Positions 3,844-24,233 of a stretch of 34,272 nt of DNA are shown piece by piece. Position 1 is the first letter of the stretch, and each line of letters opens with the position of its first letter. The notes under the pieces were generated by a model. That model made no database searches. It was not told where the DNA came from and saw nothing but the letters and a program-made list of their open reading frames with translations. The translations under genes and the position numbers were made by a program. Source of the stretch: a bacterium HR33 (lineage in GTDB: Bacteria > Gemmatimonadota > Gemmatimonadetes > Gemmatimonadales > GWC2-71-9); assembly GCA_945889655.1 (NCBI GenBank), contig CAMDCH010000003.1, forward strand, positions 1-34,272. Reading direction: 5' to 3'.

Positions 3844-4803
3844 TCAACGCCCGGCGAGCTCCTCCAATGCTCCCTTTACGTAGTTGAAGGTCATCTGCTT
3901 GCGCCACGAGAGGTCGAAGTCCGTGTTGTCCATCGGCTTCGACGGCTTGTAGGCGGCCTCCGCGGCGGCGCGGATCGTCTCGTCATCCAGCCGCGATCCA
4001 ACCAGCGCCTTGGCTGCCTCGGGAACCTCCTGCGGGTGACTGGCGACCGCGCCGAGAACAATGCGTGCGTCCACCACGACATCGCCCTCGCGCTTCACCC
4101 AGGCGGCCACCCCCAGCACGGGAAAATCGAACGACCCTCTTCGCCGCAGCTTCCAGTAGGTCGCGTCCCAGCCGTTCCTGGGAGGGAGCCGGATTTCGAG
4201 CAGGATCTCGTCCGGTTGCTTGGTGAGGTAGTTGATCCCGTCGTTGTGATAGAACCGCGCCGCGGGAACCACCCGTTCTCCGCCGGGGCCGGCGAGCACA
4301 TACTCGGCGCCGATCGCGACCATCACGGGAGCGAGATCGCTCGACTGCACCGCCCAGCATCGCGGAGAGGACGGCGCTACCCAGCAGATGGCTCCGTCTT
4401 TCTTCATGCAGAAGTCGATCGCCTTCCGCCACTCGTAGTTCTGGTTGTAGTAGTTGCAGCGCGTGTCGAGGCAGAGGTTCCCGCCGACGGTCCCCATGTT
4501 ACGGAGCAGGGGCGTGGAGATCAGCTCCGCGGCCCGCGCTACGGCCGGATACTCCGTGCGGATGCGGCCATCGCTCGCGAGAGCCGTGAGCGTCATCCCG
4601 GCGCTGATTCCACTCGTCTTCTTCCCCAACACCTGCGCGAGCGAGATGACGGTGCGCGGCTCCTGGTGCCGCCTCTTCATGTTGGGATAGAGGTCAGTCC
4701 CGCCGGCCACGTACGCTCCCGTGGGCCCGGCATCGCGCATCATGGTCAGCGCTTCCCCGGTCGACGAGGGTTGCAGATAGGTGAACGAGGGCAGGCGGAG
4801 CAT
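3844..4803 (-). CDS. FAD-binding subunit of xanthine-oxidase-family enzyme, 4-hydroxybenzoyl-CoA reductase beta (HcrB)-like, with [4Fe-4S] insert
   Basis: Starts MLRLPSF; AGGTDL, RNMGTVGGNL, Cys insert RCNYYNQ...FCMKKDGAICWVAPSSPRC, SSDLAP, KLRRRGSFDFP. Confidence 0.88.
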   Translation of the reverse strand: MLRLPSFTYLQPSSTGEALTMMRDAGPTGAYVAGGTDLYPNMKRRHQEPRTVISLAQVLGKKTSGISAGMTLTALASDGRIRTEYPAVARAAELISTPLLRNMGTVGGNLCLDTRCNYYNQNYEWRKAIDFCMKKDGAICWVAPSSPRCWAVQSSDLAPVMVAIGAEYVLAGPGGERVVPAARFYHNDGINYLTKQPDEILLEIRLPPRNGWDATYWKLRRRGSFDFPVLGVAAWVKREGDVVVDARIVLGAVASHPQEVPEAAKALVGSRLDDETIRAAAEAAYKPSKPMDNTDFDLSWRKQMTFNYVKGALEELAGR

Positions 4804-4816
4804 CAGGAGCTCGGGC

Positions 4817-5446
4817 TCATTGGCCGAACAGACTGACGCCCAGGCCAGCAGAGAGCGTGAAGTCGTTCTGTAGCCTTGCCGAGAAGTCATCCACCTGCGC
4901 GTTGGAAACATGATCGTCGATGTCGATGCGGAGAGTGAAAGGCCCACCGGCGCGCAGGCGCACGCCGGCACCCACGACACCCAGCACGTCCATCATGCCG
5001 GTATCGATGTTCGACCAGCCGTTCCCGCTCCGCCTGACCATTCCGCCACCTGCAGACAGCGTCAGTACCGCCCGGCGGTCGGGGAACGGCAGTGCAACGA
5101 CTGCTCGAACCGACGAAAAGGTGACCCAGGCGCGGTCGTCGTCGAACCCGCCGCCCGGCGACACCTCCTGGATCAGGTGTGACGGCGAATAAAGGATGGA
5201 CGCTTCGATCCCAAACTTGCTGGCCCACACGGTCGCCCTGCCACCGATGAGCGCGGCGGCCGCCTGGTGGATTCTTGCGTTAAGCACGGTGTTGCCGATC
5301 ACGACCTCGCCGCCGACGAGGTCGGTCGTGGGGAGGTACCCTCCGACGGTCGGCGCGATTTCGAACCGTACCTGTGCCGCCGCACGAGTCCCGACGATGG
5401 CAGATAACGCGATCACCAGCATGAATCGCTTCATCATCACCTCCAC
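4817..5446 (-). CDS. Outer-membrane beta-barrel protein lying inside the molybdoenzyme operon
   Basis: Signal peptide (AAA-Q), amphipathic strands, C-terminal QNDFTLSAGLGVSLF. Confidence 0.7.
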   Translation of the reverse strand: MEVMMKRFMLVIALSAIVGTRAAAQVRFEIAPTVGGYLPTTDLVGGEVVIGNTVLNARIHQAAAALIGGRATVWASKFGIEASILYSPSHLIQEVSPGGGFDDDRAWVTFSSVRAVVALPFPDRRAVLTLSAGGGMVRRSGNGWSNIDTGMMDVLGVVGAGVRLRAGGPFTLRIDIDDHVSNAQVDDFSARLQNDFTLSAGLGVSLFGQ

Positions 5447-5452
5447 GATGGG

Positions 5453-7891
5453 CTAGTGCTGCCGCTCTGCTGGAACTGACCTAACACTGGTCGGGGGTGA
5501 GGACACCTCCCGCCCATCACCGCCCTCCCATGGTGGCGCGACTCGTTGCGGTGCAGGCCAGTTCACGGCTGGGAACGACTTCGGTCCGTAGCGCCCCTCT
5601 TTGCCCTTCGCCTTCTGTTTCAGTGCGAAGAGCACCTTCTCGGGCGTAATCGGAACTTCATCAACCCGCACGCCTACCGCGTCAAATACCGCGTTCGCGA
5701 CCGCGGGCGGAACAGGCAGCAGCGGTCCCTGGCCGACCTCCTTGGCGCCGAACGGACCGTTGGGATCCGGGTCTTCAATGAGATACGTCTCAACGTCGCA
5801 CATCTCGAGCGTCGTCGGGCTCTTGTATTCGAGCATGCTGGGAATCTTGTGCACGAGGTTCGGCTTGCCCCGGTATGCCATCTCCTCCATCAGGGCCTCG
5901 CCGAGTCCCATGTAGATGCTGCCTTCCACCTGGCCGATCACGTTCACCGGGTTGATGCATTGTCCCACATCGTGTGCCACCCAGATCTTCGGCACCCGCA
6001 CGATCCCGCTCTCCGGGTCGACCTCCACCTCCGCCACGGCGGCGCTGTACGAATACGCCGGCGACGGGCCGACCCCCGCGCCCCGATAGCTGCCCGGGCT
6101 CTTCGGCGGCGTGTACGACCCCACCGTGCCAATGGTCCCGTGCGCCGCCTCGGCGAGCTGGACCGCTTCCGCGAAGCTCATGCCTTTGTCGGGATTCTCC
6201 GCGTCGAATACGCGACCACCTGCAAACGTGACCCGATCAGGGGGAATCATCAGTCTCAGCGCAATCACCGGCGCGACAATGTCTCGTGCGCGACTGGCTG
6301 CTTGCAGTGCCGCATTCCCGCTCATCAGCGTCACTCGGCTCGAATAGCTCCCGAGATCGACGGGAGTCAGGTCCGTGTCCGCCGTGACCACCGCGATGTC
6401 GAACGGGTCCACGCCCAGGACCTCGGCTACGATATAGGCCAGGATCGAATCCGATCCCTGCCCGATATCGGTCGAGCCGCAGAAAACCGTGACCCCGCCC
6501 CCGCGGTCGAGCTTCAGCTGCACGCCGGAGTGCGGCATGTTGTTCCAGTAGATCGGCAGCCCCGCGCCGCTGATGTAGCTGGAGCAGGCGATCCCGATTC
6601 CTCGACCATAGGGCAGCCTCCGGAACCGTTCCTTCCAGCGCGATCCCTCGACCACCTTGTCGATGCATGGGCCCAGGCCCATCGATCCCACCCGGAGGTA
6701 GTTGGCCGTGACCGAGTTGGGCTTCACCAGGTGTGATCTGCGCAGATCCGCCGGGTCGATCCGGAGATCTGCGGCAATCTTGTCCAACTGGACCTCGAGC
6801 GCGAAACGCGGCTGCGGCGTGCCGTGCCCGCGCTTGGGACCGCACGGCGGCTTGTTGGTAAAAGCGCGCGCGCCGTCGAACTTGTAGCGCTTCACGTCGT
6901 AGGTGACGGTCTGGAGCGCGCCCGTGTAGTAGGTGCTCGCGACACCGTACGACCCGTACCCGCCGCCATCGAGCAGCGTCCGGAAATGCATCCCGGTGAT
7001 CGCGCCGTCCTTCGTCACGCCCGTCTTCACCCACATCAGCGTGGGGTGACGGCCGCGGTGACAGTAGAAGACCTCTTCCCGTGTCAGCGTGATCTTCACG
7101 GGACGACCCGTGACCATCGCCAGCTTCGCCGCCACGATCTCGTGACTGAAGGGATCGCTCTTGCCGCCGAAGCCGCCGCCGTTGGGACAGGCGATCACCC
7201 GCACCCGCGCCGGCGGAAGCCCCAGGACCTTCGAGAGCGCCCGGTGCACATAGTGCGGCGTCTGGGTGGAGCTCCACAGCGTCACCTTCCCGTTCGCGGA
7301 CCACTCGGCCAGCGCGGCGTGCTGCTCCATGGGAAGGTGCGTGTTGCCTTCGTAGAAGAAGAGATCCTCGCGGACCAGGTGCGCCTCGGTGAATCCCTCT
7401 TCGACGTCGCCAAACTCGAGCGCGATCGTCTTGTGAAGGTTCCCCTCGGGCCCGTAGTCATGAATCCGCGGCTCGGGGTGCTCGAGCGCATCCTCCGGTG
7501 ACATGACCGCCCGGAGCACCTCGTATTTCACGTCAATGAGTTCGGCCGCCGCTGCCGCCGCTTCTTCGCTCGTGGCCGCAACGGCTGCCACCGGGTCGCC
7601 CACGAACCGCACCTTGTCCAGCGCCAGCGCGTGCTCGTCCTGGCTCACCGGCAGGATGCCGAACGGAATCGGCAGGTCCGGGCCGGTCAGCACCGCCTTC
7701 ACGCCCGGTGCCGCGGCCGCCTTCGACGTGTCGATCGAAATGATGCGGGCATGGGCGTGGGGACTGCGTAGCAGTTTTCCGAACAGCATCCGCGGCAGCA
7801 CGATGTCGTCGGCGAACTTCGTGGCGCCCGTGACCTTTGCCACGGCGTCAATCTTCCGGAACGGCTGGCCGATGACCGCCTTCTTTTTCAC
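5453..7891 (-). CDS. Molybdopterin-binding large subunit, xanthine-oxidase family, HcrA-like
   Basis: KVTGATKFADD, RSPHAHA, TQTPH, GGGFGGK, KRGHG, DIGQG, GSYSSRVT, GQVEG, GPFGAKEVGQG. GTG at 7891 overlaps the small-subunit TGA. Confidence 0.92.
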   Translation of the reverse strand: MKKKAVIGQPFRKIDAVAKVTGATKFADDIVLPRMLFGKLLRSPHAHARIISIDTSKAAAAPGVKAVLTGPDLPIPFGILPVSQDEHALALDKVRFVGDPVAAVAATSEEAAAAAAELIDVKYEVLRAVMSPEDALEHPEPRIHDYGPEGNLHKTIALEFGDVEEGFTEAHLVREDLFFYEGNTHLPMEQHAALAEWSANGKVTLWSSTQTPHYVHRALSKVLGLPPARVRVIACPNGGGFGGKSDPFSHEIVAAKLAMVTGRPVKITLTREEVFYCHRGRHPTLMWVKTGVTKDGAITGMHFRTLLDGGGYGSYGVASTYYTGALQTVTYDVKRYKFDGARAFTNKPPCGPKRGHGTPQPRFALEVQLDKIAADLRIDPADLRRSHLVKPNSVTANYLRVGSMGLGPCIDKVVEGSRWKERFRRLPYGRGIGIACSSYISGAGLPIYWNNMPHSGVQLKLDRGGGVTVFCGSTDIGQGSDSILAYIVAEVLGVDPFDIAVVTADTDLTPVDLGSYSSRVTLMSGNAALQAASRARDIVAPVIALRLMIPPDRVTFAGGRVFDAENPDKGMSFAEAVQLAEAAHGTIGTVGSYTPPKSPGSYRGAGVGPSPAYSYSAAVAEVEVDPESGIVRVPKIWVAHDVGQCINPVNVIGQVEGSIYMGLGEALMEEMAYRGKPNLVHKIPSMLEYKSPTTLEMCDVETYLIEDPDPNGPFGAKEVGQGPLLPVPPAVANAVFDAVGVRVDEVPITPEKVLFALKQKAKGKEGRYGPKSFPAVNWPAPQRVAPPWEGGDGREVSSPPTSVRSVPAERQH

Positions 7892-8382
7892 GTCCCGGTC
7901 TCCCGCATCCGCTCCGACGCCAGCTCCACCGCCTCGTAGATCTTCAGGTAGCCGGTGCAGCGGCAGAGGTTGCCTGCGAGGGCTTCCTTGATGTGGTCGC
8001 GGGAAGGCCTGGGGTTCTCCACCAGCAAAGCCTCGGCGACGAGCAGGAAGCCGGGCGTGCAGTAGCCGCATTGCGCGGCGCCCAGGTCGGCAAAGGCCGC
8101 CTGGAGCGGGTGCAGCTCCGGGCCATTGGCCATCCCCTCAACGGTCCGCACCTCCCGGCCATCGCAGGCCAGGCCGAGGACCAGGCACGAGAGCACCGGC
8201 TGACCGTCGAGCAGCACGGTGCAGGTGCCGCATTCGCCCAGCTCGCAGCCATGCTTGGTGCCGGTGAGGTTCAGGTCTTCCCGAAGGACTTCGAGGAGCG
8301 TCTTGTGCGGGGCGAAAGAGACCGGAGTCTCCTCGCCGTTAATGTGCAGCGTGACTACCGACCTAGGCGACTGGCTTTCCAA
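7888..8382 (-). CDS. 2x[2Fe-2S] small subunit, HcrC/CoxS-like
   Basis: GTKHGCELGECGTCTV...SC, QCGYCTPG, GNLCRCTGY. TTG start is uncertain. Confidence 0.93.
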   Translation of the reverse strand: MESQSPRSVVTLHINGEETPVSFAPHKTLLEVLREDLNLTGTKHGCELGECGTCTVLLDGQPVLSCLVLGLACDGREVRTVEGMANGPELHPLQAAFADLGAAQCGYCTPGFLLVAEALLVENPRPSRDHIKEALAGNLCRCTGYLKIYEAVELASERMRETGT

Positions 8383-8602
8383 AGAGGAAAGTCTCCGTCT
8401 GCTGGATCAGCATCTGCCTCGACTTGGGATCCCGCAGGTCGAGGGAGTAGTGATTGATGATCTGGGTCTGCTGCTTCAGCCAGTCCTTCCAGCACACCGC
8501 GCAGATCGTCGCGTGGATCTTGGCGCCGAAGTCGGTGGGGAAGGGCGAGGCTGCCATGCCCTCCCGGGTCTGTCCGCAGCGGATGCAGGTAACGTCGCTC
8601 AT
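8363..8602 (-). CDS. yggX: YggX-like Fe(II)-trafficking/oxidative-damage protection protein
   Basis: PFPTDFGAKIHATICAVCWKDWLKQQTQIINHYSLDLRDPKSRQML...FLFG follows the YggX pattern. Confidence 0.85.
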   Translation of the reverse strand: MSDVTCIRCGQTREGMAASPFPTDFGAKIHATICAVCWKDWLKQQTQIINHYSLDLRDPKSRQMLIQQTETFLFGKPVA

Positions 8603-10669: not shown

Positions 10670-13141
10670 TTACATCCTGAAGAGGTAACTCAGCTTGACG
10701 AAGAACCCGTCGGTCGTGCGATTGAGGTCGTTGAACCCGAACGCTTCGGGCTCGGTCAGGCTGGCGCCGTACCCGGCGAAGAACACCGTGCCGGGGTTGG
10801 GCTGGTAGGAGAGGAGCCAGTCCACCCGGAAGTTGTTCGACCTCGTGATGGACGCGCGCGTGTAGCGCGTGCCGGAGCGGATCAGGATCGGGAAATTGGT
10901 GCGTGAATCATCCCGCAGCGAGTCCCGGAACTGCGCGTCATACTGGCCCACGAACCGGAAGAAGATCGCGCGGGTCGCCTGGTATTCCACTCTGAGCCGC
11001 GGGATCTGCCGCCGCTTCACGGTGGACATGTCGGTCATGCGCTTGTAGAGCGAGAGCGGGTAGCGCGCGTTCACGCGGATCTTGGTCGTGGGCAGCCAGT
11101 CGAGCGTCACGGTCGGGAACGTCACGTACGCGACGGCCCACTCCTCGAAGTTTTCGTCCTGCCCGCCGATCACGTTGAACGTGAGGCGCCACGTCTTGAA
11201 CTGGGGCGTGGTGAGGCTCAGCGAATAGTCGTGGTTCGTGATCCGGTTCACGCCGGTGTACGGGATCGTGTCCTTGGCACCGCTGGGTAACGTGCGCTCG
11301 ATGTAGTAGTTGGCGTAGAGGTTCGGATCGTAGTGGAATGTCTCGAGGAAGTAGTTGGCATTGACACGCCACCCGCCGCGGAGGTTGAAGCTGTTGTTGA
11401 AATGCAGCTTCGGGTCGTTGGGCATGTGGGTGCTCTTGACGCCCCAGATGGAGTCGAGGCGGCCACCCTTGAAGAGGTGGTTGTATCCCCAGTTGCCGGA
11501 TACTGACCAGTTGAAGGTGTAGGACTCGATCGTCGCCTTGGGCTTGCCGAACCAGGTGAAGCGCTGGGAGTAGTTCATGCTCGCCTGGTTGGCCCGGTTG
11601 GCAAAGCCGCTTCGTGTACGGAACAGCGAGTCGATCCCGCTGAACGAGTAGCTCGTGCCGAAGTACTTGCCGGTGCGGTCGACATTGAAATTCCAGCGTC
11701 GGCCGCTGGTCTTGGCCGCTGTCCCCGTCTTGTCGAAGCTCTGGGAATAGTTCCCGCCCACAAACCAGATCTTGGAGAACACGTAGCGTGCGTCGCCGCC
11801 CATGACGCGGTTCCAGTTGCCCCCGTCGATCCGGTCCGTGTACACGATGCCGGCAGTGGACTGCGCGCCGAAGTCCCGCTTGAGACGAAGAATGTTGTAG
11901 ATCGGGTTGGGCCGGCCGTCTACGGTCGCGGAAACGCGGGCAATCGTCGAAAACTGTCTGTCATCCACCGCGGAAAGGAGCCCGATGCTGATGCCCGACT
12001 GCTTCCCGTTCAGCTTGAGCGCGGCGATCGGCTGGCCGATGGAGCGTGTGTAGATCAGGTTGTTGGGCGCATCGAACTGCTGCGTACCCTCGAGGAAGAA
12101 CGGACGCTTCTCGGGGAACGAGACCGCGGAGCGCGGGTCGAACTGGTTCTGCTGGACGTCTGCCTCGACCTGTGAGAAATCCGGGTTCATGGTGGCGTTC
12201 ATCGTCAGGTTGGGCGTGATGCCCCAGACCGCGTTGCCGCCAAACTCCGGCTTCCCATTCGTGTAGTTCCACCCGGCCGTGGCGGGCACCTGCGGGATAC
12301 CAACAACGCGCGAAGTGATGGTCGGGTTGAAGTCGAGCACCAGGCCGCGCTTGATATCGCTGACCCCGGTGAGCTTGCCGGACTGCACCAGCATCGATGC
12401 GTTGCCCTTTTTCAGCGGCGCCCAGCTCTGCTCGTGCTGGGAGTGCTGGACCTCGCGCAGGATGTTGATGCCCCAGTCCTGCACCTTGGTGCTCTGGTAG
12501 CGCAGGCTCTTGAACGGGATCCGGACCTCGACCTCGTAGCCGTAGTCCGTAACCCGGCCCTTGGACTGGTACTGGAAATCCTCATTGAGATCGTTGTGGC
12601 CGCCACCGGTGCCGCCCTCGCTCCGGGTCCCGTCCGACTGGCTGCCGAACGGGTTGACCATGAAGACCATCGCGCGGCGGCGGTCGTTGAACGTGTCCAG
12701 CAAGATCTGGATGTGATCGTCGGCGCTGATCTTGTCGCGGTCGGCCCGGTTCGCCTGCACCTTGCCGTGCGGCTCAAAGGCCCTGATGCCGAAATAGATC
12801 GCGTGGTCTTCGTACCACACGTACACGTCGGTGGAGTCTTCCGCCGGCAGGCCGTCCTGCGGCTGGTATTCGGAGAACCCGGTGAGCAGTGCGGCTTCGC
12901 GCCAGACCGCTTCATCCAGGATCCCGTCGATCTTTACGTCCTGGTTCAGCGAGATCCGCGGCATGTTGATGCCGAGCCGGTTCGACCGGCCGTGGTAGAT
13001 CCGGGAGGCCTCCGAAACCAGGGCGGGCGCGGTCGTGAGACTCGCCTCGCTGAGGACCACTTCGGATGAAGCCGGAGCCTGGGCCAAGGCGGTTCCCGCA
13101 AAGGCGAGTACCGCCAGCGCCGCCAACCTGATCTCGCGCAT
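10670..13141 (-). CDS. Outer-membrane protein: CBM9-like N-terminal domain plus DUF5916-type barrel region (paralog 1)
   Basis: Signal peptide; IDGILDEAVW, LLDTFND, EVRIPFKSLRY, NPDFSQVEAD, FPEKRPFFLEG, YTRSI; C-terminal FFVKLSYLF. Confidence 0.85.
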   Translation of the reverse strand: MREIRLAALAVLAFAGTALAQAPASSEVVLSEASLTTAPALVSEASRIYHGRSNRLGINMPRISLNQDVKIDGILDEAVWREAALLTGFSEYQPQDGLPAEDSTDVYVWYEDHAIYFGIRAFEPHGKVQANRADRDKISADDHIQILLDTFNDRRRAMVFMVNPFGSQSDGTRSEGGTGGGHNDLNEDFQYQSKGRVTDYGYEVEVRIPFKSLRYQSTKVQDWGINILREVQHSQHEQSWAPLKKGNASMLVQSGKLTGVSDIKRGLVLDFNPTITSRVVGIPQVPATAGWNYTNGKPEFGGNAVWGITPNLTMNATMNPDFSQVEADVQQNQFDPRSAVSFPEKRPFFLEGTQQFDAPNNLIYTRSIGQPIAALKLNGKQSGISIGLLSAVDDRQFSTIARVSATVDGRPNPIYNILRLKRDFGAQSTAGIVYTDRIDGGNWNRVMGGDARYVFSKIWFVGGNYSQSFDKTGTAAKTSGRRWNFNVDRTGKYFGTSYSFSGIDSLFRTRSGFANRANQASMNYSQRFTWFGKPKATIESYTFNWSVSGNWGYNHLFKGGRLDSIWGVKSTHMPNDPKLHFNNSFNLRGGWRVNANYFLETFHYDPNLYANYYIERTLPSGAKDTIPYTGVNRITNHDYSLSLTTPQFKTWRLTFNVIGGQDENFEEWAVAYVTFPTVTLDWLPTTKIRVNARYPLSLYKRMTDMSTVKRRQIPRLRVEYQATRAIFFRFVGQYDAQFRDSLRDDSRTNFPILIRSGTRYTRASITRSNNFRVDWLLSYQPNPGTVFFAGYGASLTEPEAFGFNDLNRTTDGFFVKLSYLFRM

Positions 13142-13260: not shown

Positions 13261-16200
13261 CTAGCGGCGCGCCAGTGGCCCCGCGACCTTCGCCATGTGG
13301 CCGATCGTGACGAGCACCCGGTGAGTCCGGCCGTCGTCCACCAGGGGAATGGCCGCGGCGTCAACCGCATGGCCATCCAGGTCGGCCGACGCGATGCCTC
13401 GGCAGCGATGCTCGGGATTGATGACGGTGATCTCGTAGCGCGTGCGGCCAAACCGCCATTTGATGGAATATCCGGACCACGCTCCCGGAATGCAGGGATC
13501 GAGCGCGAAGGTGTCTCCTGTCCGCCTGAGGCCGAGTATGCTCTCCAGCCCCGCGCGATACATCCAGCCGGCCGAACCCGTGTACCACGACCACCCGGCA
13601 CGCCCTGCGTGCGAGGGATGAGCGTAGACATCCCCGGCCATGACGTACGGCTCACCCTGGTAGCGCGCGACATCGGCGGCGGTCCGCGTGTGGTTGATCG
13701 GGTTGAGCAGGTGGAAGAGCTCGACCGCTTCATCACCGTTGCCGAGACGGGCGACCGCCATGACCGTCCACACCGCGGCGTGAGTGTACTGGCCGCCGTT
13801 CTCTCGCAGGCCCGGTGGATAGCCCTTGATGTAACCGGGATCCTGCGCGGTGCGGTCAAACGGGGGTGCCAGCACCAGCACCACTCCCGACCCGCGCGAG
13901 ACCAGGTGGCTGCGCACGGCATCCATCGCGCGCTCCGCGCGGGCCAGCGGCGCCACGCCGGACAGCACCGCCCACGACTGGGCGATCGAATCGATCTTGC
14001 ACTCGTCGTTCTGGGCCGAGCCCAGCGGGAGCCCGTCGTCGTAGTAACCGCGACGATACCAGTCGCCATCCCAGGATCGCTCGAGCACGCCGGCCAGCCG
14101 GCCGGCTTCGTTCGCGTACCGGGCGGCGCGCGGAGTGTCGCGGCCCGTGCATAGTGGCTGGAAGCGCCGCAGCACGTCGTGCAGGAACCATCCGAGCCAG
14201 ACGCTTTCGCCCCGCCCCTCGCGCCCGACGCGGTTCATTCCGTCGTTCCAGTCGCCGCTGCCCATCAACGGCAGTCCGTGAGCCCCGGCGGTGATGCCCC
14301 TGTCGATGGCTCGCGCGCAATGCTCGAAGAGCGACGCCGACACGAGCGACGGGCGCGCGTCGCCGTACGTCTCGTGCTCATGTTCGGCCAGGAGCGGGCC
14401 CTCGAGGAACGGGACAACCTCGTCGAGGATGGCAGTATCACCCGTGGTCTCCACGTAGTGCGCGACCGCATACGGCAGCCAGAGCAGGTCATCCGAGCAT
14501 CGCGTGCGCGTACCTCGTCCCCCCGGCGGATGCCACCAGTGCTGGACGTCCCCTTCGACGAACTGGCGCGATGCGGCGCGGAGGACGTGCTCGCGAAAGA
14601 GGTCCGGCCGGGCGAACGACAGCGCCATGACATCCTGGAGCTGGTCCCGGAAGCCAAACGCGCCGCCGGGCTGAAAGAACCCGCTCCTCGCCCACAGCCG
14701 GCAGCCCAGGGTCTGGTAGAGCAGCCAGTGGTTGAGGAGCAGGTCGAACGAATCGTCGGGCGTCCGCACCTGGATCGTGTCCAGCGTTTCCGTCCACGCG
14801 GCCTCCACCGATGCGAGTGCCGTGGCTGCGGCCGCGACGCTCCCGTGCCGCTGGATCAGCGCGCGGGTGTGCTGCCGGTCCCGCCCCTGGCCCAGCAGGA
14901 AGACAACCTCGTGGGTCTGTCCGGGCGCGAGCGTCACGCTGACCTGGAGCGCCGCGCACGGGTCCAGCCCGGCGCCGAACTGGCCGGACAGTCCCGGGCG
15001 CTGCAGTGCCACCGGCCGCGCCAGCGATCCGTTGCGGCCCACGAATGCAAGCCGGTCCCCCGTGGCGGACAGGGGTGTGTCGCTCGCATGGGAAAACGCC
15101 ACGGCGCCGGGGCAGCTCTCGTTGAACGGATTCCGCGCCAGGATCGCACCGGTCGCTTCATCCTGTTCGGTCACGACCTGAAGGTGCTGGCCGAGCCGGG
15201 GCGGACCCATGTGCCACTCGTTGTAAGCAAAAAGGCTCAGTCGCCGTGTGCGGCCCGTGCGGTTCGTGAGCGCAAGGTGCGAGAATTTCACAGGGTCCGC
15301 GCTGTCGACGAACACGGCGAGCTCCTGCGCGATCCCGTGGGACAAGTGGACAAAGCGCGTCACCCCGGCGCCATGCCGGGTCACGAACCGGCCGCCGTCA
15401 GATGACCGCGGAATCGGGCCCGGCGTCGGACACCAGGTGGAGCCGTCGTCCTCGTCTCGCAGGAACAGTGCTTCCCCCGTCGAGTCGGTCACCGGATCGT
15501 TGGCGAACGGCGTCAGCCGGTTTTCCCGGCTATTTCCGGTCCAGGTGTACGCGGAACCCGAGGCAGACACGACCGTGCCGACGACGGGATTCGCGATGAC
15601 GTTGACCCAGGGCAGTGGTGTTTCCCGGTTGCCATCGAGCACCACCACGTATTCGCGGCCATCGGCGGCGAATCCTCCGGTCTCGTTGGGAAACGCGAGG
15701 GTGGGAATGGCTGCGGCCTCGTCGCCGGGCTCACTCGCGCGAAGCGGCCGCGGGCGCGGTGGCGGTTGCTGTTCCTTGCGCCACTCCGGTTCCAGGTAGG
15801 GCCAGTCGAGCTGGCTCGAGAGCCCGCCCCGTTCGCCCGGCAGGATGGCGCGCGCCACGCTCGCCAGCAGCGTCCGCTCGGCTTCCGTCATGCGGTCGCC
15901 TCGCAGCAGGAAAACGCCGCCAGGGCGATGCTTCCACGCTCCCCACGGCCCGGTGTCCAGCAGGGCGGTGAGCTGGACGTGCATCTCGTCCAGGTAACTG
16001 GCCGGATGCTCGTTCAGGATCACGACATCTGCGGAGAGTCCCTTGAGTCGCCAGTACTCCTGTGCCTGGAGCACCTGGCGCACGAGCGGGATGTTGTCGT
16101 CATCTACGACACGCACCAGGAGTATGGGAAGATCACCGGAGATGCCGTGACCCCAGAGTCCTGGCTGTCCCAGCACGTTGCGCTCGAGGATCTCCGGTCC

Positions 16201-19200
16201 GGCGCGCATGGACGCGTCGATGTGCAGGACCCGTGAGGCCAGCCGCTCGTAGAGCTGCGCCTCGTCACTCGTGATGCCCAGGTGCCGGAGCATGCTCTGG
16301 GCCTGCGTGAACGCGAGGGCAAACGTCCGGGCCGCGGCACTGGGATTGTGATACTTGTTGGCCAATGCCAGCGCGCCTTCCCGGCTCGTGGCCATGCCGG
16401 TCGCGAACGACATCCGCACGAACCCTCCCGGCCCCAGCCGGATGCGCTGGCGCAGGCTAACAATGGGATCCAGCACGACGCCGGTCGTACCGGAGAGCGG
16501 CCGTCCGTCGAGGGCAACGGGGTTCTCGACCGAGCGGCCGCGGCCCAGGAACCGCCGGCGGTCCGTCTCCCACTCCACTGGCCCCTGCATCCGTCCGTCC
16601 ACGCTGAGGATGTGCACAGCCCACGCGCCGGATTCGTTCGCGGAGCGTGGCCGCCGCGCGCAGAGCAGCGCCGCACTCTCCGGCAGGTATTCCGTCTCTA
16701 CGAAGAGCTTGCTGAAGGCGGGGTGCGCGAGATCGTCGGCCACCGCGGCCAGCGCGATCTCGGCGTAGCTGGTGATCTCCAGCTCGCGCGCCCGGTCTCC
16801 GTGGTTGGTCACCGTGAGGCGACGGACCTCGACATCGTCCTCCGTGGAAACCGCGATGTCCAGCCGGGTCGCGATGTCCTCGTCCCGCCGGCGGAAGACC
16901 GCGCGTTCGGGCTGGAAGGTGACCAGGTACTCCTCCGGCTCCTGGTCGGTCGGATGGTAGGCCGCCGACCAGACAGCCCCGCTCCGGACATCGCGCAGGT
17001 AGATGAACTGGCTGCCCTGGTCCACGGTCGCGTCTTCCCGGTATCGCGTTACCGCGCGGCCGCGACAGAAGCTGGCCCCGCCACCCGCGTTGGTCACGAG
17101 CGCGGTATACGTGCCGTTTGACAGGTACTGGGCGTGCGGGTAGCGCGTGTGAGGTGACCGGAATGGACGGACCGTCGTTCCCGCGACCGCCGCGACCACG
17201 CGGGTCTCTTCCACCATCCGCGGCCGGGTGATGGGCGCGTGGCGGGGGGCGCGCTCCTGGAGGAGCAGCGCAGCCGCCTTGGCGCGCGGGTCCGCGTGCA
17301 GGCGGCGCACCATCGTGTCGTCGAGGAGCGTGTTCGCGAGCGCGACCAGGCTCATTCCCTGGTGATGGGCGAGGAAGGCGCGGATGATCGTGCCCCCAGC
17401 GGGAAGCCGGGGCGCCCCGTCCCCCTCGTCTTCAGTCACCTTCCGGTGGGTGTAGTCCACGGATTCATAGAATCCGTACGCCCCCTCCATTCCCTCGCGC
17501 GCCAGGCGCCGGAAGTTGGCGGCCGCGGCGGCGGGATCTACCATCGCGGCCAGCGCGGTCGCGTACGGTGAAATGACCAGCTCGTCACCCAGTCCCCGCT
17601 TGAGGCCGAGTCCGGGCACGCCAAACGCCTTGTACTGATAGTTGTCGTGGCGGTCCACGACGTTGAAGGCGGCTTCCGACGTGCCCCATGGGACACCGCG
17701 TTGCCTGCCATAGTCGATCTGCCGCCGCACCGCCATCCGGCACGACTGGTCGAGCAGCGTATCCGGGTAGCTCCGCATCACCAGGCTGGGCATGAGGTAC
17801 TCGAACATGCTCCCGCTCCACGAGAGCAGCGTGGGTGCGCCGCCCACGCTCGTCAGCAACCGGCCAAGGTGGAACCAGTGGCTGTCGGGCACGTCGCCCT
17901 TGGCGATCGCGACGAAGCTTGCGAGCCGCGCCTCGGAGGCGAGGAGGTCGTAGTAGGACGGGTCGAGCCGCCCCGGTCCTTCGACATCGGCCAGCCGGTA
18001 CCCGATGGAGAAGATCTTTCGCTCGCGGTGAAGGAGAAAACCGAAGTCCATTCCATTTGCAAAATCCGCGGCCCGCCGCGCGAGCGCGCGGAGGCGGAGG
18101 GCGTCGTCCTGGCCCGCCGCCCGTGCCGCCTGGCGGAGGCCTTCGGCCAGGGCAAGCAGGGCCCCGGCCAGGTTGCCGCTGTCCACGGTGGAGACGTAGC
18201 GCGGCAAGAGCGGGGCGAGGGTGGTCGTGTCGTACCAGTTGAGCAGGTGCCCCTCGTGACGCTCCAGTCGCTCCATGGTGTCGATCGCCCGCTCGAGTCG
18301 CTCGACCAGCTCGGGTGCCGCGATGAAGCCGAGGTCGTTGGCGGCGAGCGTGGACAGCAGGCCCATCCCGATGTTGGTGGGAGATGTCCGGTGCGCGATG
18401 ACCGGGACGGGTGTTTCCTGGAAATTGTCCGGCGGAAGGCCGTGGTCCGCGGCTCCCATGAACGTCGAGAAGTAACCCCATGTCTTCCGCGCGATGCCGA
18501 GCAGCAGCTCGCGATCCTCCGCGTTGAGCACCTGGCGCCGGGGTGGCACCGGCCGGCTCAGCCACCATGCCGCGAAAGGCGCGACGGTCCAGAAGAGCAG
18601 GAGCGAAGCGGCCGCCGGGAGTGCCGATGGCCGCGCAGCCGTCACGAGCGTGAGGATGGAAATCGCGATAATCGGGCTCGGCGCCATCTCGGCCAGGAAC
18701 AGCAGCGCGACTGGCCGCCCCTTCAACCCGGCAGCGCGAGCGGTCGCCGCCGCGGCCGTTTCCCACTCGAGCAGCCGGCGCTGGGTGAACGCGAGCCGCA
18801 CGAGAGTCAGCACGATGGCGTGCACCATCTCGCTGGCGTGGTAGGCCAGGAACGTGAACTGGAGCAGCGTCCGCGCGCTCGCGGTCTTGAGATCATCGAC
18901 CAGGAATCGGAGGTACACGCCCACCGGCTCGTTGGGCGCGGGCCCGATGGCGAACTGCGCGGCGACCGCGAACAACGGAAAGGCGGTGGCGGCCAGAATC
19001 CCCAGCGTCCAGAGGACGGGGTTGCCCGGCAGCGCCAGCCAGGCAAGCAGCAGCGCGCCGAGCGTGGCCGGGGCCACGAGCGTGCGCCGCAGGTTGTCCA
19101 GGATCTTCCAGCGCGCGATGAGCGGGAGGCGGTTGCGCTCCAGGCCTCGGCGGGTGGGAACGAACGGGAACAGCCAGAAGAGAATCTGCCAGTCTCCCCG

Positions 19201-21579
19201 TGCCCACCGGTGTTGCCGGCGCGCGTGCGCGAGGACACTCGCCGGGTAGTCGTCCACGACTTCCACGTCGCTGACGAGTGCGGCCCGTGCATGAAGTCCC
19301 TCGAACAGGTCGTGTGAGAGCAGCGCGTTCTCGGGCACGCGGCCCTCGAGCGCCGCGCTGAACGCGTCCACGTCGTAGAGACCCTTGCCGGTGTAGCTCC
19401 CTTCGGCGAACAGGTCCTGGTAGGTATCCGAGACGGCCGTGGTGTAGGGATCGACGCCCGTGTGCCCCGCGTAGACCCGCGCGAACAGGGATCCGGCCGC
19501 ACTCGCCATCGTCACGCTGACGCGCGGCTGGAGGATGCCGTACCCCTCGGTGACCCGCCCCAGCTCCCGATCGAAATGCGGCCGGTTCAGCGGGTGCGCG
19601 ATGATGCCGATGAGCTTCCGCGCCGCGTGGAGCGGAAGCCGTGTATCGCTGTCCAGCGTGATGCAGTAGCGGACCCCCGACAGCACGCCGGGGTCCCCGA
19701 CATGGAGCGCGTAGCTCGTATCCTTCGCGCCCCGGAGCAGGCGATTGAACTCTTCGAGCTTGCCCCGTTTCCGCTCCCACCCGATCCAGGAGCCTTCGCC
19801 GGGATTCCAGTGCCGGGTGCGGAGGAAGAGGTGGAACCGGTCGCCGCGTCCCTCGCCAAGGCGGGCGTTCAGGTCGTTCACGCCCGCCGTGGCCGCGGCC
19901 ACGATCGCCTTGTCTCCCGGCAGCGTCGCAGTAGCGGCGTCGGCAAAGTCCCCGAGGATCGCGAAATGAACGTGCGGGTCGAGATTGCCCAGCGCGAGCA
20001 CTTCCATGTGCTCCAGCAGGCCCGTCACCGTCGCGACGTCCGTGAGCAGCGTCGGGACTACCACCATGGTCCGGGCATCGGCGGGGACGCCGGACTCGAA
20101 GTCGAGGCGGGGAAGGCGGCGGGGCGGAGCCAGCTGTGCCGCGATGCGCTGGACGACCGAGATGGCGAGCTCGCTCGCGGGGAAGAGCAGCAGGGCTGCC
20201 GTCCACGCAAGGACGACGAGCGGTGCACTCCCCTGGGCTCGCAGATAGAACGCCGCCAGCGCCAGGACCGTCGCGACGATCAGCCCGATGGCACCGAGAT
20301 AGAAGGCGGTGGCGTGGGCAAAGACGAACCGCCGGATGCGAACCCGTGGGCGCGGGTAGTGCGCCACATCCGTCTCCAGGTCACCCCGGCCCCGGCCGAT
20401 GAGGTGGTAGCCGACGTGTGCCGCCCGGCTCTCCGGCGGCGCGGCCGCCCGTGAGCTTTCGACACAACGCAATGCTACGCGCAGCTGGGCCTCTCCCGTT
20501 CCCTCGGCCAGCTCCTCCACCGCCTGGCGATAGCGGTCGCGGCTGAAGAATTCCATCCGGCCATAGACCCCGGCGGGGTCCCGCTGCAGGACCTGCTCGA
20601 CCAGGCTGACGCTCTCGAAGAACTCGCTCCAGTCCAGGGTGGAGCAGAGCCGCAGGCTCGTGATCGCGTTGGCCATGGAGACCTGGCCGGCGGCCTGGCC
20701 CTGGTGCTCCGTCCGGATCGATTCCTCGGGCGTCATGCCCACGGCGGCGAGGCGTTCTTCGATGGCGGCGCGTACCGGCGCGACGAGCGGTCCGTACTCG
20801 CGCATGCGTTGGAGCAGCCGCACCACGTAGCCGGTTTCCAGCACGCGCGGGAGCAACCCGAGGAGCGCCGGGTCGGGCGAGGCGGCGATCTGCGCCAGGT
20901 ACCGGTCGGCGTGGCGGCGCTCTTCGCGACTCTCGATCGCCTCGTCCGCGAGCCGCCGGAGATTCTCGACCAGGGTCAGCTTGACCATCGTCGGCCACGC
21001 CCAGAGCTCACCGATGGTCAGGGGGGCAACGGTCTGGTACGCGGTCAGGAACCGCGTCATCTGGTGCCGGTCCAGCCGTCCATCGGTATGACCGATGAGC
21101 TCGACCGCCATCGCGTAGACCCGCGCGATGCCGGCCATTTCACGGGGCGCCAGCTTGGGAAGGTCCCGGTAGTAGCTCCGCGGGAGATCGTGCTTCGCGG
21201 CCCGGGTCTCGCCCTCGACGAGATGAAAGTTGTCGAGGAGCCATTCCGCGGCCGGGGGCACGAATTCGCCCGCGTGAACGTCGTCCGCAAAAAGGCGATA
21301 GCCGGACCGGAGGACGCGGGCGTTGTCTTCGATGCGGGAGAAGAAGGCGCGCACGTGACGCCGCGGCGTACGGCTGAGCGTGAAGCTCGCCGCCAGCACC
21401 CTGGCGCGCTCCTCCAGGCGCTCGACGCTCAACAGCTCGGCGCGCAGAGGCTTCTCTTGCTGTTTGATGGTCCCTCCGCCCGGCCCAGGACGGCCGGTCA
21501 GCGGGTTGGTTTCAATCAGGCGTGGCTTGAGGGGACAAGTTGCATACCGCTTGCGAGCTGGCATGCGACAGGGGGGCAC
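13261..21579 (-). CDS. ndvB: Cyclic beta-1,2-glucan synthase (Cgs/NdvB/ChvB type; GT84 + cyclisation domain + GH94 phosphorylase)
   Basis: [43 protein letters not shown]; [30 protein letters not shown]; [32 protein letters not shown]. Exact start is uncertain. Confidence 0.95.
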
Positions 21580-21732: not shown

Positions 21733-21757
21733 CTCACTTCTCACTTCTCACTTCACT
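21733..21757. repeat. Heptamer tandem (CTCACTT)x3 overlapping the stop codon of paralog 2
   Basis: ctcactt ctcactt ctcactt cact; single arm only. Confidence 0.75.
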
Positions 21758-24105
21758 CTAAACAGATAGCTCAACTTCACGAAGAACCCGTCGCGGACCC
21801 GGTTCACGTCGCTGAAGGCGAACGAGTCGGTCTCGTTCAGCGAGCTCCCGTATCCGAAGAAGACCACGGTGCCGGGGTTCGGGCGGTAGGAGAAGAGCAG
21901 GTCCACGCGCACGTCGTTGGTCTTGCGGGCCGTGGTTACCACGTACCGCGTCCCGCTGCGCGACATGAGCGGGAAGCCGGTGGCGGGATCCTTCAGCGCG
22001 GATAGCTGGTCCACCGTGTACTGCCCCACGAACCGGATGAAGACCGGCCGGGCGAGCTGGTACTCGATCTTGAGCCGCGGAATCTGCTGGAGCGAGAACC
22101 GGGTGCCGTCGGACTCGCGGTTCCGCCGTACGTGGTTATAGCTCGCCGTGATGCGGAGCTGGCCGGTGGGCCGGATGTCCGTGCTGGCGCCCAGGGAGAG
22201 ATACCGCGCGCGATCCGGCTCCGTGAAGTTGAGGTCCCGCCCCGTCTGCACCGACGTGTTGAACGAGCCCCGCTTGAACTCCGGGCTCGAGACCGAGAAC
22301 GTCCCGGTCCAGGCGTTGTTGATCCGCGAAGGCACCAGGTACGGAATCGTGTCCACTACGGTTCCGGTGGTGCGCTGGATGCGGAGGTTGTACGACGCCT
22401 GCGGGAAATCGTAGGTCCGCCAGTTCATGCCCGGAGTCACGGTCCAGCCACCGCGCAGGTTCATCGGGAGTGTGGCGTTGAACCGCGACTCCCCCGGCAG
22501 CTCGGTCGGGTTGAAATCGACGTAGCTCCAGATCCAGTTGGTGCTCCACCGGATGTTGAGCTTCTCCATCACCGCGCCGCGCACGCCCTGGACCAGCGTG
22601 ATCCGCGACAGCGAGCTCACGTCCACCTGGCCAGCCCGCGGGATGAACCCGCTGCCGGAGACGAAATTCGGGTGAATGGCCTTCACGCCGTACCGGCATC
22701 CGAAGATCTTGCCCGTGCAGTCGAACGCGGTCTCGAACAGCGGGACCTTGGTGACGACGCCCGCCGCGGTGCGGTTGAAGCTCCACGCATTCTGTGCGTC
22801 CCAGAAATTGGAACGGTTCCACACGAGGTGGATGTCACCCTCGGCCACGCGGTTCCAGGTGCTGCCGTCCATCTTGTCCGTGTAGGTGATCCCCGAGTAC
22901 GACTGGTTCCCGATGTCCCGGCGCAGGCGGAGCATGTTGTAGATCGGGTTTGAGCCGGTGGTGGACGTGCTCTTGTCGTCGATCGCGGAGATGAAGCCGA
23001 TGTCCGTCCCGGAGAGCTTCCCGGTCGCGCGCGTCGCGACGATCGGGTCGGCGATGCGGCGCGTGTAGACCAGCCGGTTCAGCGTGTTGAATTTCTCGAT
23101 GCCATCGAGGAAGAAGGGCCGCTTCTCGGAGAAGGACACGGCGAACCGCACGTCCTCCGGGATCTGCCCGGCGTCGGCTTCCACCTGGGAGAAGTCCGCA
23201 TTGTAGGTGAAGTCGAGCGCCAGGTTGGTGGTCGCGCCCCAGCGCGCGTTGAACCCGGCTTCCGGTTCTCTCTTGTAGTTCCAGCCCGTCGCGGGCGCCG
23301 CCGGCGGCGTGCCGTTGATCTTCCCGAGCACGAACGGATTCACCTCGAGCACCAGGCCGCGCCTGAGGTCGGTGAGTCCCGCGAGCTTTCCCGACTGCGA
23401 AACCAGCGGTCCCTTGCCGAGGAAGGCCGGCGTCCAGGTCTGCTCGTAGCCGGAGTGCTGGACCAGCCGGACGAAGTTGATGCCCCAGTCCTGGACCTTG
23501 GTGCTCTGATACCGCAGGCTCTTGAAGGGAATCCTGACTTCAACCTCGTACCCCCACTCCGTCACTCGCCCCTTGGACTCGAACACGTAGTCGGTCGTGA
23601 AATCGGCGCGCGCGATCGCGGCGTTGTTGCGGAAGCCGTCGGCCTGCACGCCCAGCGGGTTCACCGCGAACGAGAGCGCGAGCCGCTTGTCGTTGAAGGT
23701 GTCGAGGAGAATCTCCACCCGGTCGTCGGCATCGATCTTGTCGCGGTCGGCAAGGGTCGCATTCACCTTTCCGTGGGGCTCATACGCCCGGATGCCGAAG
23801 TAGATCGCGGTCGGCGCGTACCAGACCAGGACGTCCGTGGAATCCTCGGCCGGTCTCCCGTCCACCGGGGAATACTGCGAGAACCCGGTCAGCAGCGTGG
23901 CCTGGGACCAGACCTCTTCGTCCAGGTGGCCGTCTACCGACACCTTGGCGTCTTCGATTCGCGGCAGATGGGCGTTGGTCTGCCCCGAGAATCCGTGGAA
24001 GACGTTCGGGGCCCTGGTGGCACCGGCAACCGCCACCGGCTGGTTGGTGGTGATTTCCTGGGCCTGGAGGGCTACGGCGAGGGCTAGGGCGAGGGCTGGG
24101 AGCAT
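21748..24105 (-). CDS. Outer-membrane protein: CBM9-like plus DUF5916-type (paralog 2)
   Basis: Start MLPALALALAVALQAQ at 24105; VDGHLDEEVW, LLDTFND, EVRIPFKSLRY, NADFSQVEAD, FSEKRPFFLDG; C-terminal FFVKLSYLF. Confidence 0.85.
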   Translation of the reverse strand: MLPALALALAVALQAQEITTNQPVAVAGATRAPNVFHGFSGQTNAHLPRIEDAKVSVDGHLDEEVWSQATLLTGFSQYSPVDGRPAEDSTDVLVWYAPTAIYFGIRAYEPHGKVNATLADRDKIDADDRVEILLDTFNDKRLALSFAVNPLGVQADGFRNNAAIARADFTTDYVFESKGRVTEWGYEVEVRIPFKSLRYQSTKVQDWGINFVRLVQHSGYEQTWTPAFLGKGPLVSQSGKLAGLTDLRRGLVLEVNPFVLGKINGTPPAAPATGWNYKREPEAGFNARWGATTNLALDFTYNADFSQVEADAGQIPEDVRFAVSFSEKRPFFLDGIEKFNTLNRLVYTRRIADPIVATRATGKLSGTDIGFISAIDDKSTSTTGSNPIYNMLRLRRDIGNQSYSGITYTDKMDGSTWNRVAEGDIHLVWNRSNFWDAQNAWSFNRTAAGVVTKVPLFETAFDCTGKIFGCRYGVKAIHPNFVSGSGFIPRAGQVDVSSLSRITLVQGVRGAVMEKLNIRWSTNWIWSYVDFNPTELPGESRFNATLPMNLRGGWTVTPGMNWRTYDFPQASYNLRIQRTTGTVVDTIPYLVPSRINNAWTGTFSVSSPEFKRGSFNTSVQTGRDLNFTEPDRARYLSLGASTDIRPTGQLRITASYNHVRRNRESDGTRFSLQQIPRLKIEYQLARPVFIRFVGQYTVDQLSALKDPATGFPLMSRSGTRYVVTTARKTNDVRVDLLFSYRPNPGTVVFFGYGSSLNETDSFAFSDVNRVRDGFFVKLSYLFRVK

Positions 24106-24110
24106 GACCA

Positions 24111-24116
24111 AAACTA
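24111..24116 (-). promoter_or_regulatory. -10-like box (TAGTTT) 5 nt upstream of ATG 24105, possibly leaderless
   Basis: Minus strand reads GCCATAGTTTTGGTCATG; no SD. Confidence 0.4.
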
Positions 24117-24140
24117 TGGCTGCGGCGAAGGAGAAAACAG

Positions 24141-24233
24141 AGGGACTGGGCACCAGGGATCAGGGATTAGGGCCAAGCCTCCAGCCCCCGGTCCCTAATC
24201 CCCAATCCCTGATCCCTAGTCCCTAGTCCCTAG
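24141..24233. repeat. Inverted heptamer arrays (AGGGAYY / RRTCCCT), same family as 9656-9720
   Basis: Left agggact gggcacc agggatc agggatt aggg; right ccctaat ccccaat ccctgat ccctagt ccctagt ccctagt, ending at the permease stop. Confidence 0.9.

Follow-up and report, generated by a model that had tools for sequence, protein, structure and literature searches.

The window analysed here is a stretch of 34,272 nucleotides (positions 1 to 34,272 of contig CAMDCH010000003.1, assembly GCA_945889655.1, bacterium HR33 of the Gemmatimonadales), and the system in question is a three-subunit molybdenum enzyme that belongs to the xanthine oxidase (XO) family and whose molybdenum (Mo) subunit carries a glutamine at the position of the family's catalytic glutamate. 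On the - strand the genes follow the order YggX-like protein, 2x[2Fe-2S] subunit, Mo subunit, an inserted open reading frame (ORF) and the flavin adenine dinucleotide (FAD) subunit, with their coordinates given in Table 1. Labels beginning with P denote proteins, G genomes and L loci; P0002 is the Mo subunit of the window and G000 is the window's own genome. The Mo subunit matched PF01315, PF02738 and PF20256 far over their cut-offs, covering an a/b-hammerhead and two molybdenum-cofactor (Moco) binding domains. The long ORF at 8071..5453 begins inside the upstream gene, and the GTG at 7891, overlapping the stop of the 2Fe-2S gene, is the most likely start. The Fe-S cysteines of the small subunit are readable in the sequence, and the four cysteines of the FAD-subunit loop, a predicted [4Fe-4S] site, were invariant in 146/146 loci of the glutamine-bearing clade described below. 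Among the NCBIfam models, those for 4-HBCR (4-hydroxybenzoyl-CoA reductase) were the top match of both the alpha and the beta subunit and came narrowly second for gamma, with scores below the equivalog cut-offs (855 of 994.55 bits for TIGR03194, 280 of 404.55 for TIGR03195 and 174 of 257.8 for TIGR03193). Combined, these results predict that the HcrC-HcrA-HcrB-type enzyme is complete and carries Mo-pterin, FAD, a pair of [2Fe-2S] clusters and, in addition, a [4Fe-4S] loop.

Table 1. Features of the three-subunit enzyme and its immediate surroundings in the window.
Feature	Position	Strand	Evidence or remark
Mo/molybdopterin cytosine dinucleotide-binding large subunit, HcrA-like, 812 aa	5453..7891	-	Pfam Ald_Xan_dh_C, MoCoBD_1, MoCoBD_2; 1rm6_A E 1.2e-185
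CAG codon, Gln721, at the catalytic Glu position of the family	5729..5731	-	alignment to Thauera HcrA Glu726
Motif GAKEVGQG, residues 715-722	5726..5749	-	translation, homolog alignments
PKRGHG motif, Lys353-Arg354	6821..6838	-	Lys common to the Glu-type sister clades
Residues 318-330 (A318, S319, A325, Q327, T330), Gln clade vs Glu sisters	6902..6940	-	clade comparison
C-terminal tail, ~50 residues	5456..5605	-	confined to the Gemmatimonadota/Acidobacteriota members of the Gln clade
2x[2Fe-2S] small subunit, HcrC-like	7888..8382	-	Pfam Fer2, Fer2_2
FAD subunit, HcrB-like, 319 aa	3844..4803	-	Pfam FAD_binding_5, CO_deh_flav_C
FAD-subunit Cys loop C-x15-C-x7-C-x8-C, insertion of [4Fe-4S] type	4357..4458	-	four Cys intact
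Signal-peptide, beta-barrel-like ORF between the Mo and FAD genes	4817..5437	-	not part of the enzyme
YggX-like protein, four Cys (two CxxC pairs)	8363..8602	-	NF003817 84 bits vs cut-off 74

The glutamine was called in the initial annotation from the codon read as 5731-5729, and the assignment was borne out by structure-anchored alignment. A phmmer search of P0002 against all PDB chains returned the alpha subunit of Thauera 4-HBCR (1rm6_A) as the best match, nearly full length, and GPFGAKEVGQG aligned with Thauera GPFGAKEASEG without a gap, placing Gln721 on chain residue Glu726 of PDB 1RM6, the counterpart of bovine XO Glu1261. In other PDB relatives the same column falls within GAKGIGES (CoxL), GAKGLGEI (KdhL) and GIKGMGES (Qor). 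The Glu at this position is described in PMC10420851 as the base that activates Mo-OH. The upstream Glu of GAKE was considered as the true catalytic residue and ruled out: Thauera and every Glu-type sister have this Glu as well, so no shift of the catalytic residue is involved, and the ungapped 1RM6 alignment does not place it at the catalytic position. The base itself, for which the initial annotation had proposed a check in reads, was compared in assembled contigs rather than raw reads; contigs from runs X1 and X2 (two samples of one study, X1 being perhaps the source of this DNA) carried the same base at the CAG codon, with no differing letter.

The other cofactor motifs of the family are retained. 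The Moco motifs STQ, GGGFGGK, RGHG, DIGQG and GSYSSR are intact in the Gln clade and its sisters, where the Gln of STQ is taken to be XO Gln767 and the Arg of RG.G to be XO Arg912. Motif comparison, the readable small-subunit cysteines and the four retained loop cysteines agree with the earlier statement that the remaining Moco motifs and Fe-S cysteines are preserved, and PKRGHG, with its Lys before the conserved Arg, was found as described. The subunit thus has the domains and Moco-contact motifs of the XO family and lacks its catalytic Glu.

The Gln is a fixed trait across the relatives examined. Both K-E-x-G-Q-G and PCGPKRGHG occurred in every one of the 119 further protein clusters that were listed with identities of 79-84%, and two scans of one-genome-per-species contigs found Gln in 80/80 and 77/77 loci. 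Each scan had more than 590 matching stretches, the examined loci being those among the matches listed, and the Gln clade is therefore larger than counted here. Four Bacillota loci related to P0130 were also of the Gln type. After removal of repeats, at least 150 distinct isolates remained, all with Gln, from seven named phyla: Acidobacteriota (69), Gemmatimonadota (61), Planctomycetota (11), Bacillota (4), Actinomycetota (2), Eiseniibacteriota (1) and Pseudomonadota (1), with one isolate outside the named phyla. Their overall identity was 58-84%, and the Gln was encoded by CAG in 115 and by CAA in 35 of the 150, never by a Glu codon. The initial annotation had allowed that close homologs might all carry Glu, leaving a mutation or sequencing error; none of the close homologs examined does, and the uniformity across 119/119 clusters and 150/150 isolates in one clade supports its suggestion of a subfamily, one that is real and maintained by selection. 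At the level of aligned sequences, this conservation demonstrates strong purifying selection on the Gln-type scaffold.

In the wider family the catalytic column is mostly Glu. Among 141 of 150 representatives (50% clustering) plus the query that have a residue at this column, 120 carry Glu and six Gln, the remainder having R, S, D, M, I, L or N. Of the 150 representatives nearest in the family, roughly one in ten is without the catalytic Glu (P0168, P0198, P0231, P0241, P0243 and others); several of these have also lost the Gln of STQ or the Arg of RG.G, and some rows with neither Glu nor Gln are fragments. Such representatives with degraded motifs may be degenerate or differently working Mo proteins.

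A tree of 39 chosen sequences (IQ-TREE, LG+C20, quick search) joined the Gln group of Gemmatimonadota and Acidobacteriota (QA) and that of Bacillota (QB) in one clade with a support of 99 in the SH-like approximate likelihood ratio test (SH-aLRT). The next sister was a Glu-bearing group from Ignavibacteriales/Bacteroidota (E1; SH-aLRT 91), followed by a second Glu-bearing group (E2; SH-aLRT 97). A single Glu-to-Gln change at the base of QA and QB would be the simplest reading of this topology, with the distant Gln of P0162 a separate event; on the alignments and tree, the general-base Glu appears to have been replaced once and Gln then kept in a distinct orthologous branch. The Acidobacteriota sequences were nested within the Gemmatimonadota diversity at 72-75% identity, which suggests possible transfer of the operon between phyla. 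A C-terminal tail with the motif GR.GP...PE..WP.P..V..P.EGGDG is conserved in the QA members; the Thauera-like representatives, the Glu sisters and the Gln group of Bacillota all lack it.

The two Gln groups differ from E1 and E2 at eleven positions (H153, F303, A318, S319, A325, Q327, T330, G340, L445, S616 and Q721), and no new acidic residue is among them. In bovine XO numbering, with ungapped counting from Arg354 and Pro446, residues 318-330 presumably flank the position of XO Arg880 and residue 445 presumably corresponds to Val1011, so that both would probably lie near the substrate pocket. The co-variation of Gln with PKRGHG proposed in the initial annotation was not borne out: Lys353 was rejected as a partner change, since the Lys is common to the Glu-bearing E1 and E2.

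The Glu-type relatives provide a contrast in genomic setting. The E1 proteins are fused 2Fe2S-Mo proteins resembling P0128, with 58% identity to the window's subunit; full-length E2 rows (P0129, P0131, P0133 and others) were at 50-52%, and P0151, P0158 and P0159 were lower (42-44%). A BcrC-like gene, scoring 188-373 bits against a cut-off of 421, occurs in all five E1 genomes; in three of them (L086, L088 and L090) it is located 8-10 kb from the enzyme, and BoxB was present in 0/5. A further Glu-type copy in G021 (L127, G021:C4; 46% identity, GAKEVGEG) lies ~5 kb from a BcrC over the cut-off. Glu-type paralogs occurred without BoxB in G042 and G051, and the Glu type occurred together with BoxB in G078. 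In a Gemmatimonadales genome and in Ignavibacteriales/Bacteroidota, the Glu types near BcrC or BcrC-like genes hint at routes of anaerobic benzoyl-CoA metabolism.

For the Gln type, all-against-all ORF clustering of the first 80 loci left the two partner subunits as the only conserved neighbours, the 2Fe-2S subunit being present in 78 and the FAD subunit in 75. The next ORF clusters, seen in 13-21 loci, were AhpC, PadR, amidase, Maf, DciA, GatC, PanB/PanC and similar, and these further neighbours that recur are housekeeping genes whose placement reflects lineage synteny. A more specific arrangement was seen in five Acidobacteriota loci probed with the BoxB and BoxC of G004, in which boxC-boxB lies directly upstream of the Gln-type operon: L130 (identical to L050), L131, L132, L155 and L160, from three Terriglobia metagenome-assembled genomes (MAGs) and two related Acidobacteriota/Terriglobia MAGs. 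The order in L130 is a boxR-like regulator, boxC (787 bits), boxB (749 bits), hcrC, hcrA with Gln, a pyridoxal phosphate (PLP) dehydratase and hcrB, and in L171 a benzoate-CoA-ligase-like gene stands at the position upstream of the Gln-type operon.

At the genome level, the presence of the Gln type was compared with that of BoxB, the aryl-CoA epoxidase (model TIGR03225, cut-off 499.1 bits; matches in Gemmatimonadales counted at E<=1e-40). Pooled over three samples, BoxB or BoxB-like genes were present in 40/42 Gln-type carriers vs 6/44 non-carriers. Among 31 Gemmatimonadales genomes (the window's own and 30 relatives), a TIGR03225 match was found in 14/16 carriers vs 3/15 non-carriers, most of the matches being to a short BoxB-like protein; Gln was verified in 15/15 carrier relatives, and both carrier and non-carrier states occur in each of three families, and genus g19 also has both. 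Among 41 acidobacterial genomes from the order of G031, 15/15 carriers and 0/26 others had a true BoxB over the cut-off, usually on another contig than the Gln-type genes; Gln was verified in 14/15 of these carriers, the stretch of G056 ending before the motif. In the class of G032 (14 planctomycete genomes), BoxB was present in 11/11 carriers and also in all three non-carriers. In total, 31 sampled genomes have true BoxB, of which 27 carry the Gln type; this total includes G088 and G003, whose matches are cut by the contig end and fall under the cut-off, the match of G088 (456 bits) being counted as present. The unpublished genomes G016 and G067 are included, and without them the carrier counts of 14/16 and 15/15 become 13/15 and 14/14. 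Fisher p-values overstate the association, the genomes being related and two of the three samples being centred on carriers. In G076 and G077, BoxB was seen within open frames of 1024 aa.

The BoxB-like protein of the window's genome (G000:C167; L207 4487-5599, - strand) is a di-iron protein of 370 aa scoring 230.6 bits to BoxB and 41.6 to PaaA. It is clustered with genes for a crotonase, a GDPD-like protein and a 3-hydroxyacyl-CoA dehydrogenase and with an ORF lacking an assigned family, and the cluster is syntenic in G012 and G027, giving three Gemmatimonadales genomes in all (L207, L208 and L209). It may constitute an undescribed aryl-CoA oxygenase set.

Several further features of the locus and of the window accompany these results. 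The ORF between the Mo and FAD genes had no Pfam or NCBIfam match and a weak counterpart (25% identity) in one of the 80 loci; among relatives this gap ranges from ~0 to 2.8 kb and in L130 it holds the PLP dehydratase, so that it looks like a hot spot for inserted genes. The YggX-like gene shares 20 bases with the 2Fe-2S gene at the latter's annotated start and was tried as a functional partner and rejected, as YggX is a neighbour in only 10/80 loci; the proposed co-variation of Gln with the 4-Cys YggX likewise did not hold, and the gene represents lineage synteny rather than a component of the system. The YggX neighbourhood in those 10 loci also has genes for a GHMP kinase and DinB. Elsewhere the window encodes a MacAB-TolC set, a PLD-type enzyme, an asparagine synthase and, at 13261-21579 (- strand), a 2772-residue giant of the GH94 type (cyclic glucan synthase/phosphorylase-like), flanked by paralogous DUF5916/CBM9 proteins at 10670-13141 and 21748-24153 (- strand). 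The genome's second XO-family protein, G000:C13 (L128 2268-4556, - strand), is a large subunit of IorB-like type that bears a twin-arginine signal and has the usual Glu (GLGEP).

Among characterised systems, HcrCAB of Thauera aromatica (1RM6/1SB3; TIGR03193-TIGR03195) is the closest comparison. Both have three subunits, the same gene order, the GAKE..xG frame and the extra Cys loop of the FAD subunit, for which TIGR03195 is the best family match and whose Cys spacing is presumed to match that of Thauera; a link to benzoyl-CoA metabolism in some genomes may also be common to both. In contrast to Thauera, the enzyme described here has Gln for Glu726, Lys for Met before the conserved Arg and, in addition, a C-terminal tail; BoxB or BoxB-like genes take the place of benzoyl-CoA reductase as its partners, and its hosts, presumably aerobic, belong to Gemmatimonadota, Acidobacteriota and Planctomycetota and are mostly represented by uncultured genomes. 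The E1 and E2 sisters, both uncharacterised, share PKRGHG and group with the Gln clade at SH-aLRT 97, but they keep Glu, and E1 is accompanied by a BcrC-like gene without BoxB. Aerobic CO dehydrogenase is more remote: the CoxL active-site loop is AYRCSFR, with a Cys after the Arg, compared with PKRGHG here, and CoxL chains were matched only at E 1e-85 to 1e-56. As for the criteria of a 4-HBCR, the three subunits and the predicted [4Fe-4S] Cys loop are present; BoxB or BoxB-like genes give the relatives a strong tie to benzoyl-CoA consumption, of which the window's genome shows only the short BoxB-like gene; the enzyme is not classed as 4-HBCR because it lacks the catalytic Glu and scores under the equivalog cut-offs. 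By its sequence it would work most like 4-HBCR, of which it is the closest uncharacterised relative.

Two further systems bear on the chemistry. UcdCFO, the urolithin C dehydroxylase of Enterocloster bolteae, has three subunits, belongs to the XO family and removes a phenolic OH (PMC11760930); likened here by description and not by sequence, it differs in keeping Glu (E741 of UcdO) and in its anaerobic gut host. The mouse AOX1 variant E1265Q has the same substitution at the same position and, according to PMC2671166, keeps 60% of its Moco and showed no activity with any substrate tested; that variant was made in the laboratory, whereas the Gln described here is natural and conserved. A full-text literature search returned no description of a natural Gln branch or of a link between Hcr and Box, and a single paper, on SAR324 genomes, contained the terms boxB and 4-hydroxybenzoyl-CoA reductase together.

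The explanation preferred here, held with about even confidence, is that the Gln type is an active, Box-linked aroyl-CoA reductase operating without base catalysis. Since E1265Q is inactive in AOX1 and the natural Gln is conserved, another mechanism would have to apply: the enzyme would be catalytically active without the Glu-driven deprotonation of Mo-OH that hydroxylases need, most likely in the reductive direction, as in 4-HBCR. Electrons would pass from the [4Fe-4S]/FAD subunit through the [2Fe-2S] clusters to Mo, where Gln721 would serve only as a hydrogen-bond partner of the Mo-bound oxygen; Mo would remove an oxygen function from a (hydroxy)aroyl-CoA to yield benzoyl-CoA or a close analogue, and this product would enter the di-iron epoxidase route of BoxB type, or of BoxB-like type in the window's genome. 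The initial annotation had offered altered Mo chemistry, a compensating residue and a non-catalytic electron-transfer role; sequence by itself does not separate these, and the conservation of the clade, the changes in the presumed pocket region and the coupling to Box genes favour altered but real catalysis.

Several results weigh against this explanation. Both characterised reductive members keep Glu (Thauera HcrA, and UcdO according to PMC11760930), and reductive chemistry alone therefore does not explain the loss of Glu. All three subunits fall below the 4-HBCR equivalog cut-offs, and most Gln-type loci have no aromatic-catabolism neighbours; in 79 of the first 80 loci only the partner subunits were conserved, amid housekeeping genes. 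Domain searches of the window's proteins found no aromatic-catabolic gene, and profile searches of its genome (85.5% complete) found no BoxA, no BcrC and no BoxC or benzoate-CoA ligase over the cut-off, its only BoxB candidate being the short BoxB-like protein on another contig, less than half the cut-off in score. A benzoate-CoA ligase over the cut-off was present in only 5/16 Gemmatimonadales carriers vs 2/15 non-carriers, and the co-occurrence counts are correlations among related genomes, drawn for two samples out of three around carriers.

Four other explanations were weighed. That the Mo site is dead, or that the Gln reflects an error in sequencing or a mutation private to one strain, agrees with the loss of activity in the engineered E-to-Q enzyme (PMC2671166), but it is close to refuted by Gln in 150/150 distinct isolates with both codons at 58-84% identity, by the conservation of all Moco motifs and by the same base in the second sample's assembly. 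An oxidative hydroxylase or dehydrogenase, in which another residue, a water chain or an acidic group of the substrate replaces the base, would account for the intact state of all other hydroxylase motifs, and the clade-specific His at 153 and new Gln at 327 might be enlisted for it. PaoABC is an oxidase with [4Fe-4S] in its FAD subunit, and the presumed aerobic life of the hosts would suit an oxidase as well. This explanation is considered unlikely, as none of the 11 clade-specific positions offers a new acidic residue, the closest relative with a known function acts as a reductase, and E-to-Q abolishes all activity of mouse AOX1 (PMC2671166).

The remaining two explanations concern the link to Box genes. 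One holds that in Acidobacteriota, Gemmatimonadota and Planctomycetota the Gln type is a central redox component of a Box pathway that lacks BoxA, acting as electron donor to BoxB or, through Mo(IV), deoxygenating 2,3-epoxybenzoyl-CoA as a safety valve; if true, chemistry without a general base would explain the dispensable Glu. BoxA (TIGR03224) was not found at E<=1e-20 in 10/10 BoxB-carrying genomes with or without the Gln type (G003, G004, G031, G032, G034, G046, G076-G078 and G085), in which BoxC was present alongside BoxB where checked, nor at E<=1e-15 in G000; the operon is shared with boxC-boxB in five loci, and 27/31 of the sampled genomes with true BoxB carry the Gln type. The BoxB-positive genomes without the Gln type (G004, G076, G077 and G078) also lack BoxA, however, so the Gln type is not a specific filler of the BoxA gap; as a test of BoxA replacement the comparison did not discriminate. 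No obvious reductase was seen beside boxBC in the four regions inspected, none standing out in the BoxB-positive non-carriers, the samples were centred on carriers, and an intact Moco site would be costly for electron transfer alone. This role is judged quite unlikely. The other holds that the substrate is unrelated to benzoyl-CoA and that the association with Box genes merely follows from a common lifestyle or from genome size; no aromatic-CoA gene adjoins the operon in the window or in most loci, and in the order of G031 the genomes of carriers tend to be larger. It is regarded as improbable in view of the fusion of boxC-boxB with the hcr operon in Acidobacteriota, the presence of both states within each of the three Gemmatimonadales families and genus g19, and the position of the closest sisters beside BcrC-like genes.

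Under the preferred explanation of a Box-linked aroyl-CoA reductase without base catalysis, the consequences reach beyond this genome. The Glu of the XO family has been treated as indispensable, and a natural, conserved Gln branch would point to a second way of working at molybdenum. Additionally, the tie of the Gln type to BoxB, as opposed to the tie of its sisters to benzoyl-CoA-reductase-like (BcrC-like) genes, suggests an undescribed route in which an "anaerobic-type" dehydroxylase feeds oxygen-dependent ring opening, a route that would serve plant-derived phenolic acids.

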